Part shown: positions 13,143 to 36,141 of the stretch, in pieces
How positions within the stretch are numbered: position 1 is the stretch's first letter
Layout: each line of letters opens with the position of its first letter
Assembly: GCA_035496475.1 (NCBI GenBank)
Contig: DATJEP010000030.1
Location: forward strand, 1 to 59,022
Direction: 5' to 3'
Source of the DNA: Candidatus Udaeobacter sp.
GTDB lineage: Bacteria; Eisenbacteria; RBG-16-71-46
Length of the DNA: 59,022 nucleotides
Made by a program: the position numbers and the translations under genes
The notes under the pieces: generated by a model
Database searches by the model: none
What the model saw: the letters and a program-made list of their open reading frames with translations, nothing else
Told to the model about the DNA's origin: nothing

Positions 13143-13157
13143 TGGCACATGGCTTGC
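13143..13157 (+). promoter_or_regulatory. Sigma-54 (-24/-12) promoter, TGGCAC-N5-TTGC exact
   Basis: The plus strand reads tcTGGCACatggcTTGCgg. No credible plus-strand ORF lies downstream. Confidence 0.5.
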
Positions 13158-13168
13158 GGTTCAACTGG

Positions 13169-13292
13169 TTGGCGGTGGCGCGGAGCGCCGCGTTCCTACC
13201 AACCGAGCCTGCCATCTCGCGTGGCCTCTCTCACCGCCCCACTTCAACCCCAGAGCGTCCGGTCCCGAGAGGTCCGGGCGCTCTGTCGTTTT
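13169..13292 (+). ncRNA. Candidate sigma-54-dependent small RNA (about 125 nt)
   Basis: The predicted TSS lies about 12 nt after the -12 GC. A 5' hairpin spans 13167-13204, a C/U-rich linker (CCUCUCUCACC) spans 13205-13250, and the transcript ends in a terminator hairpin plus UUUU. Confidence 0.35.
13251..13292 (+). terminator. Intrinsic terminator: 12-bp stem (cagagcgtccgg/ccgggcgctctg, one G-U pair) followed by tcgTTTT
   Basis: The hairpin was read directly from the sequence. The T-tract is on the plus strand only. The same hairpin could also stop the convergent ybbR-like operon. Confidence 0.5.
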
Positions 13293-27953: not shown

Positions 27954-28685
27954 ATGTCCGAGCTCCCGGTGGTGTTCTTTTCCGACGCCCACCTCGGAGC
28001 CGAGTCGAGCGCGCGCGAGGCCGATCGTGAGCGGCGCCTGCACGCGTTCCTCGAGTCGCTCATCGGACGGATCTCCCGCCTCGTCATCGTCGGCGACCTG
28101 TTCGACTTCTGGTTCGAATACCGGTCCGCGATTCCAAGGCGCTATTTCTCGACGCTCGAGCTGCTCGGCCGGTTGCGCTCCTCCGGCGTCGCGATGGACT
28201 ACCTGAACGGAAATCACGATTTCTGGCTCGGGCCTTTTCTGTCCCGTGACCTCGGGATCACGACGCATCAGGGATCGATGACGCTGGACCAGGGCACGCG
28301 GCGGATCTGGATCCATCACGGCGACGGATTGATCGGCGGCGACCATGGCTACCGCCTGCTGAAGCGCGTGCTGCGTCACCCTGCGAGCATCGCGCTCTAT
28401 CGCCTGATCCATCCCGACCTCGGCATCCCGCTGGCGCGCTGGGTGTCGAGCGGATCGCGCCATGCACAGGGTCAGCGGCCGCTCGAGGCCGAGCGGCTGT
28501 GGAACGAAGTGGCGCGCCCGCGCTTCGATCAGGGATTCGACGCAGTGATCCTCGGCCACTTCCATCACGCCTACGAGCGCCGCGAATCGGGACACGAGCT
28601 GTTCGTGCTCGGCGATTGGATCCGTCACTTCACCTACGTCACACTCGACAACGGCCGCCTGTCGATGGAGTGCTGGCCGGAGTAG
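27954..28685 (+). CDS. lpxH: LpxH-family metallophosphoesterase (UDP-2,3-diacylglucosamine diphosphatase-like)
   Basis: Carries the motifs FFSDAHLG, VGDLFDFW, NGNHDFW, HHGD and GHFHH in the LpxH order. Confidence 0.7.
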   Translation: MSELPVVFFSDAHLGAESSAREADRERRLHAFLESLIGRISRLVIVGDLFDFWFEYRSAIPRRYFSTLELLGRLRSSGVAMDYLNGNHDFWLGPFLSRDLGITTHQGSMTLDQGTRRIWIHHGDGLIGGDHGYRLLKRVLRHPASIALYRLIHPDLGIPLARWVSSGSRHAQGQRPLEAERLWNEVARPRFDQGFDAVILGHFHHAYERRESGHELFVLGDWIRHFTYVTLDNGRLSMECWPE

Positions 28686-28759: not shown

Positions 28760-29674
28760 CTAGAACTGCGCGCCGAGCGAGAAGCGGTGGGTGTCGCCGA
28801 GGTTCGAGCGGAACGGCACGAACGCGTAGTCGAGCCGGAGCGACCGCACCGCCCATCCCGCGCCAAGAGACATCGTCGATTCCGTGTCCCCGGTCCGGAG
28901 GCCGCCCCGCAGCGCGAGTCCCGATGAGTGCGCCACCTCGGCGCCCAGGGCGGTGACCGACGCCTGGCCGGCCAGCATCGAATTCTCGAGCGCGCCGCGC
29001 ACCGTCAGGGCGCCAAATCCGTGCGTCCACGACGCACCGGTGCGCAGTCCGGCAGGAAGCCGCACCGGATCTCCCGGCGTTCCATCGATGGTGAAGTGCG
29101 TGGCCGGACCGAGGTCGTGAAGGTCGGCGCTCAACCGCAGTCCGGACCAGCGCGCCGGATTCCAGGTGACACCCGTACCGAAGTCGTACGTGGTTGCCGC
29201 GGCATCGGCGATGCGCTCGTGGACCACCTGGGCGCTGCCGCCGAAGCGCCAGCCGGGCGCGATGGCGCGACCGTAGCCCACTCCAAATTCGAGGTCGTCG
29301 GAGCCGAATGATCCAACCAGGTTGCCGAGCGCGTCGCGCTCCGGAATCGGCTCCGAGTAGAGCGCGCGGAGCGAGGCCGCGATACCGCCCCCGAACAGTC
29401 GGCCGGCAATCGCGAACTGATCGTGGCGGAGGTTGGCGAGATACTCGAAATGCGACGCTTCGAGCTGGATTCCGCGGGCGCCATCGAGCGCGGCGGGATT
29501 CCAGAACGCCGCTTCGACGCCGTCGGCGATCGAGGCGTACGCGCCGCCCATCGCCGAAGCGCGCGCGCCCGCCGGCACCTTGAGGAACGCGAAGCCGGCG
29601 GGATCGCCGAGGGCGGACGTGGAGATCAGGGCGCCGGCAAGAATGGCGAGAATCGTGAGGCGTGGTCGGGACAC
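28760..29674 (-). CDS. PorV/PorQ-like outer-membrane beta-barrel protein
   Basis: AAGGGAG lies 5 nt before the GTG at 29674; an alternative ATG is at 29710. The signal peptide is followed by FLKVPAGARASAMGGAYASIADGVEAAFWNPAAL, the PorV-family signature. The protein ends in ...GAQF. Confidence 0.7.
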   Translation of the reverse strand: MSRPRLTILAILAGALISTSALGDPAGFAFLKVPAGARASAMGGAYASIADGVEAAFWNPAALDGARGIQLEASHFEYLANLRHDQFAIAGRLFGGGIAASLRALYSEPIPERDALGNLVGSFGSDDLEFGVGYGRAIAPGWRFGGSAQVVHERIADAAATTYDFGTGVTWNPARWSGLRLSADLHDLGPATHFTIDGTPGDPVRLPAGLRTGASWTHGFGALTVRGALENSMLAGQASVTALGAEVAHSSGLALRGGLRTGDTESTMSLGAGWAVRSLRLDYAFVPFRSNLGDTHRFSLGAQF

Positions 29675-29786
29675 GAAGGCTCCCTTGGGATGGCAATCGC
29701 GGGGCCGCATTCGCGAGCCCCGCGAGAGTTCGAGCTTATCACGATGTTCGAGGCCGGTGCCCGCACCGCGCTGCCGCCGCCGGCGA

Positions 29787-31229
29787 CTACGGACCGCCGC
29801 GGCCTCCATGGTCGTCGCGGTTGTCGCGGTTGTCGCGGCTGTCGCGGCCGGGAGGCGGCTGCTTCGGCCCGTTGTCGTGAGGCCGTTCATCGCGGTGACC
29901 GCCGCCATTGTCGCGCGGATGATCCTCGCGGCCGCGCGGCTGATGTTGAGGCTCCTGGCGCTCGACCGGATGCCGGTCGATGCGCGGCTCCGCCGGTCTT
30001 TCGACTCGAGGAGGGGGTGCGTCGCGGCCGCTCCTGCCCGAGCCACCGTCATCGCCCGTGCGTCCAGCCGGCATGCGACCCACATCGGGCCTGCGCCATT
30101 CGGTCCCTCCGGGGCTTCGACGATCACGTCCGTTGTCCTGGCTGACGGGGATTCTCTCGGCCGGCTCGCGCGCGACGTCCGGCCGCCGCGGCGTGCGATC
30201 GGAGTCCGCCGGACGATTGCGTCCGATCGGCAGGGATCCGATTCCACCGCGCCTCACTCCGGATACGACGAACCCCGGTGGAGGTGGCGTGGTTCCACCT
30301 CGCCAGTCCTTGTAGTGATCCGGCGGCGTGTAGCCGACCGGCGGAGGCGACTTGTAACGCACCAGGGGACCGCCCCAGTTCTGAGTCCATCGCCTCCAGC
30401 CATCCCATGAGGACAGCCAGGGCTGGCCGCCCACGCGCCAGCGCGGCGGGCAGTCCGGGCGATAGACGAACACGTAGTAGGGAACGAAGCCGCACCAGTA
30501 GGTCGGGCCCCAGCCCCACGACCAGTTGACGCGGAAGTCCACCACGCGACAGCTCGTGTAGTAGGGATCCCAGCCGTCCCACCATGCCCAGCGACCCGGC
30601 CGGTGGCAGTCGTTGCAGATGTAGCGCGGATAGCGGACCTGCTGATGCACGTAGTACGTGGTGTAGGCGGTCGCGAAGGATTCGGTGTCGTTGGGATGCG
30701 ACACCACGCGGCGACGGATGCGCTCCATCGCGACGAATGGATCGCCGACGATCCTTCCATCCTGGGTCACGCCTTCTTCGTCGGTGGGCTCGTTGACGTA
30801 GCCGATGTCGTCGCCCTGTGCGTCGAACGGGCGCAGGTACCAGGGCAGATCCTCGAACGGCTCGCGCGACGCGATGGCGACGATGAAATCCTCGCCGATC
30901 GGATCCTGCACCACGAGCTGGTTTTCGTCGTCCTCGGGGGGAACGCGATAGGTCTCGCGCGCTGCCACCATGCCGTTCTGTCCGCGCAGGGGATAGAGCA
31001 CGCGCACGTAGCCCTGGGAGTCGATCTCGTAGACCAGCAGGTAGGCGTCGTCGGTCGCGCGGGTGCGGACCTGGAGAACGTCGCCGGGCTCGTAGATCGC
31101 GTCGTTGCCGCGATCGGTCCAGAGGTCGATGCCGATGTGCCGGGCCTCTGCCGGGCTCGCGGCCATCAGCGAGCCGAGCAGGATCAACGAAGCGAGGCAG
31201 GAACCGGCGGATGCGATCGAGCGCTTCAT
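29787..31229 (-). CDS. DUF4384-domain secreted protein with a Trp/Cys/Tyr-rich middle and an Arg/Asp/Pro-rich disordered tail
   Basis: Signal peptide MKRSIASAGSCLASLILLGSLMAASPAEA. DUF4384-like segment YEPGDVLQVRTRATDDAYLLVYEIDSQGYVRVLYP. W-rich block WAWWDGWDPYY...WSWGWGPTYW. Confidence 0.7.
   Translation of the reverse strand: MKRSIASAGSCLASLILLGSLMAASPAEARHIGIDLWTDRGNDAIYEPGDVLQVRTRATDDAYLLVYEIDSQGYVRVLYPLRGQNGMVAARETYRVPPEDDENQLVVQDPIGEDFIVAIASREPFEDLPWYLRPFDAQGDDIGYVNEPTDEEGVTQDGRIVGDPFVAMERIRRRVVSHPNDTESFATAYTTYYVHQQVRYPRYICNDCHRPGRWAWWDGWDPYYTSCRVVDFRVNWSWGWGPTYWCGFVPYYVFVYRPDCPPRWRVGGQPWLSSWDGWRRWTQNWGGPLVRYKSPPPVGYTPPDHYKDWRGGTTPPPPGFVVSGVRRGGIGSLPIGRNRPADSDRTPRRPDVAREPAERIPVSQDNGRDRRSPGGTEWRRPDVGRMPAGRTGDDGGSGRSGRDAPPPRVERPAEPRIDRHPVERQEPQHQPRGREDHPRDNGGGHRDERPHDNGPKQPPPGRDSRDNRDNRDDHGGRGGP
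29811..29846 (-). repeat. Four tandem 9-bp units (gtcgtcgcg gttgtcgcg gttgtcgcg gctgtcgcg) encoding RDSRDNRDNRDD
   Basis: The repeat was read directly from the sequence. It lies inside the 3' end of the DUF4384 gene. Confidence 0.85.
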
Positions 31230-31407: not shown

Positions 31408-32241
31408 CTAACGACTCCCTACCGCGCCGGCCGCGAGCGATGCGGCGGTGCGCCGCGTGCGCGCACCGTCTTCACCCGCGGGGCGGGCGCGCAACTCCCG
31501 ATTGTTGGGATCGGTCTGATACGCCCAGTCGAACACCACCTGGCTCGACGAGATCGAGATCACGCGGAACTTCGCGTAGTTCACGGTGGTGGCCCCGAGC
31601 CTGAGCACGTAGCAGTGGCCCGCGATCAGCTCGACCGTTCCGGTCGAGGACCATCCGGCCGAAGGAGCGAAATCGACGGCGTCGAGGCTGGTGGCATAGC
31701 CGGCGTCCTGAATGTCGGTATCCGTGAAGGGGCACACCATCTGCGGCGTGCCGCCGACCAGCTGGTAGTACATGTCGGTGCTGGGATCGTCCCAGGGCCG
31801 GACCGTGAAGGCCGAGAAATCCCATCCGCTGGTCGAAGGCGATGACGTCTTATCGCTCAGCCCCTGATTCGTCCCGGCGGGGCGAGGGGTGTCGTGGATC
31901 GTGTCGTACGACAGGTCGCTCTCGTTCCCCGCCAGGTCCACCGCCGAAACCGCGAAGTACTTGGTCACGCCATCGGTGAGCCCGGTGATCGTGAACGAAG
32001 TCGCGGGGGTGGATCCGACACGGGTATAGGCGCCATTGGCGGTGTTGCCGATGTAGACGCGATAGAGGGCGAGATCGCCTTCGGTGTTCTGGAGCCAGTG
32101 GAGGGTGACGCTCTGGTCTCCGGTGACGCTGTACACGCCGCGCGGCGCTGCCGGAGGCGTGCGGTCCTGAGGTGAGGTCTGGTCATCGCAGCCGGCCAGG
32201 AACACGGCTGACACCATCATCAGAATCCACAGTTTCCGCAT
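31408..32241 (-). CDS. Lipoprotein with a fibronectin type III domain
   Basis: GAAGGAGG lies 5 nt before the ATG at 32241. Lipobox: MRKLWILMMVSAVFLAGC. FN3-like segment PPAAPRGVYSVTGDQSVTLHW...YRVY...YFAVSAVDLAGNES. Confidence 0.8.
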   Translation of the reverse strand: MRKLWILMMVSAVFLAGCDDQTSPQDRTPPAAPRGVYSVTGDQSVTLHWLQNTEGDLALYRVYIGNTANGAYTRVGSTPATSFTITGLTDGVTKYFAVSAVDLAGNESDLSYDTIHDTPRPAGTNQGLSDKTSSPSTSGWDFSAFTVRPWDDPSTDMYYQLVGGTPQMVCPFTDTDIQDAGYATSLDAVDFAPSAGWSSTGTVELIAGHCYVLRLGATTVNYAKFRVISISSSQVVFDWAYQTDPNNRELRARPAGEDGARTRRTAASLAAGAVGSR

Positions 32242-32290
32242 GGCAGCCTCCTTCGGTGCGAACAATCGTCTCCAGCACCCTAACCCCAGC

Positions 32291-32305
32291 GCAATCGATG
32301 TGCCA
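32291..32305 (-). promoter_or_regulatory. Sigma-54 (-24/-12) promoter, TGGCAC-N5-TTGC exact, for the FN3-lipoprotein operon
   Basis: The minus strand reads gcgTGGCACatcgaTTGCgc. The -12 element lies 50 nt upstream of the ATG and SD. Confidence 0.6.
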
Positions 32306-32365
32306 CGCGGAAGGGCGATCCGGCGCACCGACCGCCGATCGCGTAAGTGGCGGGGTGGCAAGCGG

Positions 32366-32418
32366 AAAACGCGACGGCCGCCCGCGGTCCTCTCGGGACC
32401 GGAGGCGGCCGGATCGCG
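32366..32418 (-). terminator. Intrinsic terminator: CGCGA-tcc-GGCCGCC-t-CCGGTCC-cgaga-GGACCG-cg-GGCGGCC-g-TCGCG followed by TTTT
   Basis: The composite stem of about 18 bp and the T-tract on the minus strand were read directly from the sequence. Confidence 0.5.
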
Positions 32419-32677
32419 CTGGAGTGTGGCGTCGCCGCAACGGCGCGAAGCCACTCTGGAATACGGGGACACCAGTCGAGCTGCAACGTGACTACAGCCG
32501 AGACATCCCCCAGTGTTGGCCCGCGGTCACGAATCGAGCCGGTGTCCCACACCTGAGCTCGCCACGGGACACGGCGACCGATACACAAGAACCGGGTCAA
32601 CCGTGAAGCGGTCGACCGCGGCTCCGAGGTGAGACTCAGGCTTTATTCTTCATTGCTTCTGGATCTGCACGTTCCAA

Positions 32678-32759
32678 GCTAGCCGGTCGTAAAGGGCGGT
32701 GCGCTGTCATGTGACTGGGGCTCGTACCCTCGACCGGATCCTTTACTGCACCGGCTAGC
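32678..32759. repeat. 82-nt inverted repeat / long hairpin (gctagccggt-c-gtaaagg ... cctttac-tgc-accggctagc)
   Basis: The 10-bp and 7-bp complementary arms were read directly from the sequence. Confidence 0.7.
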
Positions 32760-32830
32760 CCAGATTGTGGTTCGACAACTTGCGCTGCCGAACTTTTTTG
32801 GAGGTCCCCCCCCTCCGCCGACGTGGTAGA

Positions 32831-32845
32831 GCACCCCGCGTGCCA
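32831..32845 (-). promoter_or_regulatory. Sigma-54-like element TGGCACG-N4-GTGC
   Basis: The minus strand reads cTGGCACGcgggGTGCTc. The -24 element is perfect, and the -12 element has G instead of the first T. Confidence 0.35.
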
Positions 32846-33060
32846 GATGCAATGACCCTGGCAAGCAAATCTTCATCGCATTACGCGACAGCGGATTACG
32901 GGCTCGTTCCGCGGACGGGGATGGCGGCGCCGCGAAACCGCGACCGGCCGATTCCTAAGATAACTATCGAATGACCCACGTGACCGGCTAAGTGCCGATG
33001 GCACATGGGTCTGAGTATAAAATGACTTAATAGTCGATCGCGGCGGTTTCGGAGGGTTTG

Positions 33061-36141
<3,081 letters not shown>

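Follow-up and report, generated by a model that had tools for sequence, protein, structure and literature searches.

Two tandem sigma-54-type promoters and a predicted structured RNA between an activator gene and an envelope operon in Candidatus Eisenbacteria

Here we describe a locus on a stretch of 59,022 nucleotides (the window; contig DATJEP010000030.1 of assembly GCA_035496475.1), deposited as Candidatus Udaeobacter sp. and placed by GTDB in the Eisenbacteria. On its minus strand, a gene for a sigma-54 activator with TPR repeats and a GAF domain is followed, after an intergenic gap of 819 bp, by an operon of three genes that encode a lipoprotein with an FN3 domain, a secreted DUF4384 protein and an outer-membrane barrel of the PorV/PorQ family. 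The original prediction had placed an exact sigma-54 promoter in front of this operon and next to the activator gene, and domain searches agree with the products that it named on both sides. Two sigma-54-type promoters lie in the gap: a proximal one, P1, before the lipoprotein gene, and a distal one, P2, which is predicted to drive a structured RNA of ~454 nt separate from the operon; the earlier reading had missed both P2 and the RNA. The features are collected in Table 1.

Table 1. Features of the activator-operon gap, of the genes around it and of the second exact sigma-54 match (positions of the window).
Feature	Coordinates	Strand	Basis or remark
Activator gene, 1026 amino acids: N-terminal TPR repeats, GAF, AAA+ sigma-54 interaction domain, HTH_8	33061..36141	-	Pfam
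Hairpin 3' of the activator stop (ACCCATGTGCCATCGGCACTTAGCCGGTCACGTGGGT), then T-rich tract	32974..33010	-	MAFFT, 42 activator-stop-to-P2 regions
P2-proximal element, degenerate here (CTG-N5-TAA-N4-AT)	32875..32891	-	Position-anchored profile
P2, distal sigma-54 promoter, TGGCACGCGGGGTGCT	32830..32845	-	Invariant GG and GC, canonical spacing
Predicted non-coding RNA, ~454 nt	32366..32819	-	Start site inferred; 3' end inferred at T-run
Domain A: 5' hairpin, variable hairpin, multi-branch domain	32672..32818	-	Covariation, covariance model
Invariant 5' hairpin, GGAGG-GGGGGGA-CCTCC	32800..32816	-	~+3 of transcript; invariant columns, 44-sequence alignment
Variable hairpin, GNRA/UNCG-type tetraloops	32793-32770	-	GCAA, TTCG or CTCG loops in different loci
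Multi-branch closing stem, CTGGGCTAGCCGG with CCGGCTAGCTTGG	32763-32751 with 32686-32674	-	
Invariant GAGGGTACGAGCCCC in the multi-branch domain	32731-32717	-	
Domain B: long hairpin, GGGACACCGG...CTGGTGTCCC	32466..32548	-	Covariation
Invariant CACTGGGGGATGT in the domain B apical loop (CACUGGGGGAUGU)	32515-32503	-	
Element 4, inverted repeat/hairpin, GAGTGGC...GCCACACTC	32422..32456	-	RNA part or P1 enhancer
P2 RNA terminator, GC-rich hairpin and T-run: GGCCGCCTCCGGTCCCGAGAGGACCGCGGGCGGCC gtcgcg TTTT	32366..32410	-	Helix 5 covariation
P1-proximal element TTG-N12-TTA (TTGCCACCCCGCCACTTA), 56 nt upstream of the T of TGGCA	32344..32361	-	Same motif type as before P2
P1, proximal sigma-54 promoter, TGGCACATCGATTGCG	32290..32305	-	Exact motif and conservation
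Predicted operon mRNA leader, 38 nt	32242..32279	-	Start site inferred from -12 position
Gene 1: 277-amino-acid lipoprotein, FN3 domain, conserved beta-rich C-terminal half	31408..32241	-	Pfam fn3
Gene 2: 480-amino-acid secreted DUF4384 protein, low-complexity Pro/Arg/Gly/Asp-rich tail	29787..31229	-	Pfam DUF4384, 2.2e-16
Gene 3: PorV/PorQ-family outer-membrane barrel, last operon gene	28760..29710	-	NCBIfam PorV_fam, 129 bits (cutoff 90)
Conserved metallophosphoesterase gene	27954-28685	+	Convergent with operon; 42 loci
Sigma-54 promoter, TGGCACATGGCTTGCG	13143-13158	+	Exact match
Core of the 13143 RNA, CCAACCGAGCCTGCCA	13199-13214	+	Conserved

Relatives were found by a scan of one genome per species, which gave 261, and the loci of 80 of these were fetched with 6-kb flanks. 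About 55 of the fetched loci are Eisenbacteria-like and the remainder are labelled WOR-3, Gemmatimonadota, Stahlbacteria, Cloacimonadota or KSB1; the databases hold 992 homologues of the lipoprotein, the named ones belonging to Candidatus Eisenbacteria (Eiseniibacteriota). Synteny and P2 were counted on the 54 sequences with enough upstream DNA, and all 54 keep the order activator, gap, FN3 lipoprotein, DUF4384 protein and PorV-family barrel, with activator identities of 51-84%; the gap measures 750-1400 bp across Eisenbacteria loci. The claimed neighbourhood of promoter and activator gene is a syntenic one, but the two do not adjoin directly: a predicted RNA gene fills most of the distance between them. 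Five loci (L002, L006, L031, L041 and L076), labelled Saccharimonadaceae, Krumholzibacteriia, Limnocylindria, Methylomirabilota and Verrucomicrobiia respectively, carry an Eisenbacteria-type locus: their lipoproteins are 52-63% identical, the gene order is the same as far as the contigs reach, and the activator gene is also present on L002, L006 and L041. These contigs look like mis-binned or mislabelled ones.

Read on the minus strand, P1 consists of gcg, TGGCAC (32305-32300), ATCGA (32299-32295), TTGC (32294-32291) and g, an exact TGGCAC-N5-TTGC whose GG and GC dinucleotides stand at the canonical sigma-54 spacing, so that the claimed motif holds letter by letter. It is intergenic and on the coding strand, and its TGGCA begins 64 nt before the ATG; the corresponding distance ranges over 52-98 nt among Eisenbacteria and over 39-87 nt among the other phyla. 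The rarity ascribed to such a match is borne out by counts: the pattern TGGCACNNNNNTTGC occurs twice in the window, at 13143 (+) and at 32291-32305 (-), as opposed to 0.04 expected from dinucleotide-preserving shuffles, none of 100 of which reached two. Relaxing the -12 box to TGGCAYN6TGC adds a single site, at 32845-32831 (-), in the same intergenic region as P1. If the GC is placed at -13/-12, transcription would start near 32279, the position also proposed originally; the Shine-Dalgarno (SD) sequence GAAGGAGG lies at 32254-32247, 5 nt before the ATG at 32241, and the predicted start is thus ~25 nt 5' of it, not ~40 nt as had been stated.

The conservation of P1 was assessed with the strict pattern [TC]GGCA[CT]-N5-TTGC, on the coding strand and from -130 to -20 of the homologous start codons, in 78 loci. 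The strict motif is present in 71 of them and the core motif in 74, the per-locus chance being ~1.5e-4 and 3e-3, respectively, and the remaining 1.48 Mb of the same loci, both strands included, hold two strict matches. Across orthologues the extended consensus is TGGCACG-N4-TTGC, which agrees with TGGCAC-N5-TTGCW, the sigma-54 consensus of Barrios et al. (1999) cited in PMC4253122. A scan of positions 31800-33400 found no sigma-70-like promoter; a terminator scan of the same interval returned one weak terminator-like site, inside the RNA, with a scanner whose loop and T-run rules miss real hairpins. This pattern of conservation points to strong purifying selection on P1 before the orthologous gene across phyla.

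The P1-type element is also kept in WOR-3, Gemmatimonadota and KSB1 genomes, where palindromic enhancer-like sites precede it. In WOR-3-type loci, TGGCAC-N5-TTGCA stands ~39 nt before the lipoprotein ATG, and 5' of it are a conserved (g/c)(t/a)AATTTCA block and two tandem TGCACAA-N3-TTGTGCA palindromes, clear tandem palindromes being confined to this type of locus. Throughout WOR-3 and related loci (L054-L079), promoter elements lie ~40-140 nt upstream of the lipoprotein match, together with an AGAGGTG SD. Judged by its motifs, the WOR-3-type arrangement is a complete classical enhancer-dependent sigma-54 layout for the same gene family, and in the WOR-3 genome L060 the operon reads lipoprotein, unknown protein and a DUF4384 protein with PEGA. 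The flanking genes in these other phyla are unrelated to those of Eisenbacteria, and no activator gene is found next to the operon.

Since the element is kept before the lipoprotein gene across phyla whose flanks are otherwise unrelated, we conclude that P1 is most plausibly a genuine sigma-54 promoter, an ordinary member of a well-known class, as originally read, and that sigma-54 control of the lipoprotein/DUF4384 module would be older than the divergence of these lineages. That the match at 32305-32291 is fortuitous or without function could be imagined, as genome-wide studies in E. coli reportedly place many sigma-54 binding sites inside genes; in view of the expectation of 0.04 per window and, above all, of the conservation in 71 of 78 loci and across phyla, this explanation is effectively refuted.

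P2 deviates from the consensus at one position in the -12 box, and it is present in all 54 sequences with an upstream activator. It lies 215 bp past the activator stop in the window and ~190-340 bp past it across relatives, while the distance from P2 to P1, ~540 bp here, is 446-1128 bp in relatives and typically 500-600 bp. The same geometry recurs in six independent metagenome contigs, which are the true copies among 120 matches of a 14-mer metagenome scan, the others being mostly chance. In L032, L034, L038, L039, L042, L047 and L049 the P2-P1 distance is enlarged to 641-1128 bp; since a covariance model still finds the 5' domain of the RNA there, the extra sequence is inserted in the linker or the 3' part. 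A transcript from P2 would start at ~32819. The invariant 5' hairpin begins 13-14 nt after the GC of the -12 box, where a sigma-54 transcript should start, and its offset from the beginning of the P2 motif is 28-30 nt (29-30 in all but one locus).

Between P2 and P1, near-invariant blocks are separated by stretches of variable length. The predicted RNA folds with a minimum free energy of -227.8 kcal/mol, compared with -190.4 +/- 6.6 for shuffled sequences (z -5.66; none of 100 shuffles as good). Covariation was counted on plain MAFFT alignments that had been fitted to no structure. In domain A (47 sequences), 87.5% of the cells are paired, as opposed to 29-48% when the partners are slid, and there are 117 double-change cells as opposed to 46 +/- 6.5 in shuffles (0 of 500 reach that number). 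The 3' half of the RNA (41 sequences) lies above all 500 shuffles on all five covariation measures, the stringent ones among them, with 30 pairs changed on both sides (19.8 +/- 2.2 in shuffles) and 87 further pair types (68 +/- 3.5). Within it, helices 1-2 of domain B have 95% and 78% of their cells paired and 17 of 25 pairs changed on both sides, helices 3-4 of element 4 show compensatory changes at 4 of 10 pairs, and helix 5, the terminator, has 9 of 12 pairs changed on both sides. The linker that joins the multi-branch domain to the long hairpin is poorly conserved. The 5' hairpin has the family form CGGAGG-G(5-6)A-CCUCCA.

With a covariance model of the 5' domain, the window yields a single copy, at 143 bits on the minus strand as opposed to ~15 bits on the opposite one. 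The model also finds all Eisenbacteria loci that had been left out of the seed, one copy per locus (45 bits in the divergent L049), as well as the six metagenome contigs, and it gives no match on the loci of the other phyla, the RNA being found in Eisenbacteria only. At the gathering thresholds of Rfam 15, neither the window nor 10 orthologous loci matched a family, and a permissive Rfam scan of the gap returned microRNA noise only, with E above 1; homology to a described RNA family was not found.

That the P2-P1 segment encodes a small protein instead was also considered, as the high GC content gives long stop-free stretches, minus-strand open reading frames (ORFs) of 26-106 amino acids exist, and ORFs from different loci cluster by BLASTP. 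No frame, however, stays open around the invariant block (the minimum is 9-13 codons in every frame), the spacing of the RNA blocks is uniform modulo 3, and 21% of the gap runs are multiples of 3. These frame-openness, spacing and gap-run results all speak against coding, the conservation tracks base pairing, and a clustering in which six frames fall together is the signature of conservation at the nucleotide level, so that a small protein appears very improbable. The BLASTP clustering, which merged the six frames into one cluster, was discarded as a coding test and replaced by the frame and indel tests.

The 3' end of the RNA bears on its relation to the operon. Most orthologues have a clean terminator, CCGCCGCCGG...CCGGCGGCGG followed by a T-run. 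Many of them also have a T-run 3' of the long hairpin, so that the RNA may end after that hairpin (~350 nt) or at the final terminator (~450 nt), and since the first T-run is missing in the window, the longer form is favoured here. The transcript from P2 could alternatively be the operon's own long 5' leader, which would sense or attenuate in cis by conditional termination and to which P1 would add an internal promoter. It is on the same strand and directly 5' of the operon, there are two successive terminator-like hairpins, one behind domain B and one at 32410-32366, the last T-run of the window is weak, and the size and multi-domain build recall large cis-regulatory leaders. Nevertheless, a fully conserved P1 with its own upstream element is interposed between the RNA and the gene, other phyla use P1 alone for the same gene, with no leader RNA, and the terminator of most orthologues is strong and canonical. 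We regard a leader as unlikely, if worth keeping in view, and prefer an RNA separate from the operon.

Such an RNA might act on the operon mRNAs, or else bind or sequester a protein by means of two invariant G-rich sequences, GGAGGGGGGGACCUCC at its 5' end and the domain B loop sequence CACUGGGGGAUGU; that it is a trans-acting regulator or a protein-binding RNA in the same envelope pathway is a guess. These G-rich motifs are the two most invariant unpaired or loop motifs of the RNA (32816-32800 and 32515-32503). Besides, GGAGGGGGGGGACCUCC in the 5' hairpin joins an SD-like and an anti-SD-like sequence, in DNA of 65-70% GC where any CCUCC would pair with any SD. The loop CACUGGGGGAUGU ends in GGAUGU, matching the 3' half of the CsrA consensus from systematic evolution of ligands by exponential enrichment, RUACARGGAUGU. 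That the P2 RNA constitutes a new large structured family, apparently specific to Eisenbacteria, which serves as a dedicated output of the TPR-GAF activator and acts in the lipoprotein/DUF4384/PorV envelope pathway, is a proposal to which we give even odds.

Element 4 deserves separate consideration, since it could serve both as a part of the RNA and as a DNA site. Its family consensus is GGTGTnGCG-N7-CACA(CC/GG)TG.G.C-N5-CGCACACC, ~145 nt upstream of the TGGCA of P1, and 35 of 52 sequences have it between -131 and -178 relative to P1. The outer arms covary as an RNA stem and the centre varies as a DNA palindrome; considered as a NifA-type enhancer (TGT-N10-ACA), the element has a spacer of 11-12 nt in place of 10, besides its RNA-stem-like outer arms. 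The interval 32380-32500, which had been put forward as the place of activator sites, is largely occupied by the 3' hairpins and terminator of the RNA, though element 4 within it is still an enhancer candidate.

The blocks between P2 and P1 might even be mainly DNA-level sites, inverted repeats for an activator or an architectural protein, and not RNA. Element 4 keeps its nearly fixed distance from P1, its central CACA(CC/GG)TG varies in a palindrome-like manner that is uncompensated in the GGTGT arm, and enhancer sites are typically inverted repeats. On the other hand, stems 60-100 nt apart covary, which dimer-binding sites do not need, the variable hairpin carries GNRA/UNCG-type tetraloops, the invariant hairpin falls precisely on the predicted +3 of P2, the strand asymmetry of the covariance model is unexpected for duplex palindromes, and P2 would lack a product. 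As a general account of the segment, DNA sites in place of an RNA are thus improbable, and the structured RNA is the reading retained below.

Further candidate elements lie closer to the promoters. The P2-proximal family consensus, TTG-N5-CAA-N4-TT(A/G), is fixed at -46 from the T of TGGCA and spans -46 to -30, which makes it a candidate DNA-bending (IHF-core-like) or activator site. Its inner part, CAA-N4-TT[AG], is found at -38/-37 in 21 of 52 P2 regions, as opposed to a background of 1.8% per 90 nt, and is scattered in 13 of 52 P1 regions; it resembles the core of the IHF consensus, WATCAANNNNTTR, the copies in the window being degenerate. The wider form TTG-N12-TT[GA] is placed at -46/-47 before P2 (12 of 52 sequences) and at -53 to -57 before P1 (14 of 52), its background being 3.3% per 100 nt. 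Strict TTGC...GCAA palindrome patterns were found in only 5-10 of 52 regions, and the position-anchored profile was more informative. Further upstream, the hairpin behind the activator stop has a covarying stem and a conserved loop, (C)ACTTAG(C), with its centre ~147 bp upstream of P2; it is probably the terminator of the activator gene, and it could double as a protein-binding site, a conserved loop being unusual for a plain terminator.

The activator has the complete set of features of a bacterial enhancer-binding protein: Pfam assigns Sigma54_activat (PF00158, 5.8e-64), AAA_lid_14 (PF25601) and HTH_8 (PF02954, 2.3e-12), and the Walker A, GAFTGA and Walker B motifs are at residues 740, 787 and 808. 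Its scores stay under the cutoffs of all named NCBIfam equivalogs (NifA 326 as opposed to 529; NorR 318 as opposed to 476), so that it belongs to none of them. In the mechanism that we propose, sigma-54 holoenzyme would wait at P1 and P2 as a closed complex until the AAA+ activator remodels it; the TPR-GAF protein would bind upstream DNA by its HTH_8 domain once its TPR/GAF sensors receive a signal, and the TTG-N12-TT(G/A) element, 46-57 bp upstream of each -24 box, would help by DNA bending or activator binding. The RNA from P2 would end at the hairpin and T-run just before P1. One sensor would therefore have two outputs, the RNA and the three envelope proteins being co-induced.

Taken together, the motifs, their conservation and fixed geometry, the completeness of the activator, the synteny, and the structure and non-coding nature of the RNA lead us to assign a probability of about 0.8 to the following reading: the 819-bp gap holds two tandem sigma-54 promoters, P1 for the three-gene envelope operon and P2 for the separate RNA, and the TPR-GAF protein is most likely their activator.

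Several points weigh against this reading. The start sites, expression and rpoN dependence, as well as the acting activator, its binding place and the function of the RNA, we infer from sequence alone; a search for the RpoN-box signature in the window and in the first 80 fetched loci with their flanks found no rpoN, and the presence of sigma-54 is deduced from the fact that sigma-54 activators are encoded. The -12 region of P2 is (G/C)TGC and not TTGC. No palindromic enhancer is clearly shared by P1 and P2, and the common TTG-N12-TT(G/A) is exact in only about a quarter of the loci and lies nearer the promoter than most enhancers. The conserved blocks, element 4 above all, could act as DNA sites beside or instead of RNA stems, and the T-run of the RNA terminator is short and offset in the window, which makes read-through into the operon possible. 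Finally, the TPR-GAF protein is assigned by adjacency only, a second sigma-54 activator is encoded in the window at 15529-14081, and the homologous operons of other phyla have no adjacent activator.

These last points open the way to a variant in which P1 and P2 are sigma-54-dependent and activated by another protein, either the NtrC-type one at 15529-14081 or the product of a gene beyond the window, and in which the TPR-GAF protein regulates something else. Besides the adjacency argument and the want of a clearly common enhancer motif, it draws on the WOR-3-type operons, which use TGCACAA-N3-TTGTGCA sites typical of NtrC-like regulators with no activator gene beside them. Against it, the order and orientation of activator, RNA and operon are held in 54 of 54 sequences even though activator identity falls to 51%, NtrC-like palindromes are absent from the Eisenbacteria promoters, and the gene at 15529-14081 has a sigma-54 RNA of its own next to it. 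We hold another activator to be rather doubtful and retain the TPR-GAF protein as the candidate.

The second exact match, at 13143, is directed into the interval that separates rho (12618-11311, -) from a YbbR-like gene (14017-13349, -), the latter being the last of a cluster that includes a histidine kinase and the NtrC-type activator just mentioned; its RNA would be convergent with this cluster. Both exact matches had been described as intergenic and in a productive orientation; P1 lies before its operon, and the match at 13143 leads into a predicted small RNA and not a protein gene. The predicted RNA is ~125 nt long (region to 13295, +; z -3.3) and would end in a strong terminator at 13251-13292. 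Five of six orthologous loci (L201-L205) keep the promoter, the invariant core CCAWCCGAGCCTGCCA and the terminator hairpin, with position and orientation unchanged, and a comparison with Rfam gave no family for this RNA. The 13143 promoter is accordingly predicted, from its sequence context, to drive a conserved RNA and no protein gene, and all three sigma-54-type sites of the window would therefore be explained, two of them as driving non-coding RNAs beside activator genes. The terminators at 32410-32376 and 13251-13285 share the core TCCGGTCCCGAGAGG(A/T)CCG in 18 of 19 bases. As the orthologous loci differ in terminator loop sequence, this likeness is specific to this genome, and it may be due to chance or to sequence exchange between the two loci.

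Regarding the operon itself, the product of gene 1 starts with MRKLWILMMVSAVFLAGC, which includes the lipobox (…FLAGC); its AlphaFold model has a mean predicted local distance difference test score of 81, and fold and sequence searches give FN3/beta-sandwich matches only. For the DUF4384 protein, a sequence search of the PDB found no relative, and the titles and abstracts on DUF4384 give no functional lead. The gene 3 barrel scores above the cutoff of the family-level model and gives a weak alignment with a solved PorV (PDB 6h3i chain F), in both of which it resembles PorV/PorQ of the type IX secretion system (T9SS; NF033709, NF033710, NF033711). It differs in falling below the equivalog cutoffs (PorV, NF033710, 26.3 bits as opposed to 250; PorQ 70 as opposed to 220) and in an operon devoid of other T9SS genes. 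The name T9SS PorV was rejected on account of these cutoffs, and PorV-family barrel is the fitting one.

The operon ends after the barrel gene, since the conserved metallophosphoesterase gene converges on it; beyond that gene are DegP and amidase genes with their own sigma-70-like promoter. On the other side, the interval from a Ppx/GppA gene (37658-36672) to the activator gene contains a small ORF of 94 amino acids (36518-36234, -), which is preceded by a strong SD (GGAGAAGGAGGGGGAAG) and whose N-terminus resembles a signal peptide (MTRLRNRLLILLALLAVGLFSVRGVANA). Nine other loci have a weakly conserved counterpart in this place (33-51% identity), and the ORF may be co-transcribed with the activator gene.

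How does this locus compare with known systems? With the textbook enhancer-dependent sigma-54 promoters, glnAp2, nifH and Pu among them, P1 shares the invariant GG/GC, the canonical spacing and a GAFTGA AAA+/HTH_8 activator encoded beside it, and a candidate promoter-proximal element of the CAA-N4-TTR-like type occupies the usual place of IHF sites. The locus differs from them in that its enhancer is a candidate only, in the sensor part of the activator, which has TPR and GAF but no receiver domain, and in having two tandem promoters, for an RNA and for an operon. Its cell-envelope targets also fit the theme of known sigma-54 regulons (PMC3162934).

A closer likeness is found among small RNAs. 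CrcZ of Pseudomonas, an RNA of ~400 nt, is of a similar size class to the P2 RNA. In both cases the RNA gene is just 3' of a sigma-54 activator gene, on the same strand: crcZ lies directly downstream of cbrB, with an RpoN- and CbrB-dependent -24/-12 promoter and its own terminator (PMC5113210). No similarity in sequence or structure is seen, Rfam giving no family for the P2 RNA, and CrcZ uses repeated A-rich Hfq-binding motifs whereas the P2 RNA is GC-rich with G-rich invariant loops; moreover, a sigma-54 operon directly follows here, and the TPR-GAF activator is not a two-component response regulator. In Pseudomonas aeruginosa, nrsZ adjoins ntrC, and NrsZ is processed to forms of ~40 and ~140 nt (PMC4253122); in myxobacteria, pxr, with a coding region of 108 nt, is found downstream of nla19 throughout (PMC5568312). 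Both NrsZ/NtrC and Pxr/Nla19 of Myxococcus present a sigma-54-dependent small RNA in the intergenic region beside the activator gene, and with Pxr, as here, RNA and sigma-54 promoter are conserved across a whole lineage. They are nevertheless much smaller, unrelated in sequence, and have no co-oriented sigma-54 operon behind them. The P2 RNA, with a sigma-54 promoter, a non-coding sequence, a conserved structure and its own terminator beside an activator gene, has the traits of the CrcZ/NrsZ/Pxr type, and its layout resembles that of CrcZ/CbrB, NrsZ/NtrC and Pxr/Nla19 by analogy, without its belonging to their families.

GlmY is a small RNA that acts by protein sequestration in the GlmS pathway. 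It is a sigma-54-dependent RNA tied to the supply of cell-envelope precursors, and shares with the P2 RNA the combination of RNAs with envelope functions in sigma-54 regulons, but it has no homology to the P2 RNA and another genetic context. GlmY is known from Enterobacteria, and sigma-54 has been argued to control cell-exterior genes in general (PMC3162934). The literature on Eisenbacteria, judging from titles and the openings of abstracts, is ecological and carries nothing on regulation.

The locus is, in sum, a variant of the arrangement of an activator gene plus a sigma-54 RNA, and its predicted large structured RNA represents a family not described before, from a phylum that is uncultured. 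In Eisenbacteria as well as in WOR-3, Gemmatimonadota and related lineages, the lipoprotein and DUF4384 module would form an envelope unit under sigma-54 control, which would extend the idea that sigma-54 controls the cell exterior into largely uncultured phyla. Bacterial RNAs of ~450 nt with several covarying domains are uncommon, and in this sense the P2 RNA represents a larger gain than the promoter; as it has a defined promoter, a candidate regulator and a candidate pathway, it is testable in a heterologous sigma-54 system that does not require culture of the organism. Automated annotation leaves this whole gene, and a second, smaller one, hidden in apparently "empty" intergenic DNA. If both the P2 RNA family and the 13143 RNA are true, this phylum would routinely pair sigma-54 activator loci with non-coding RNA outputs.

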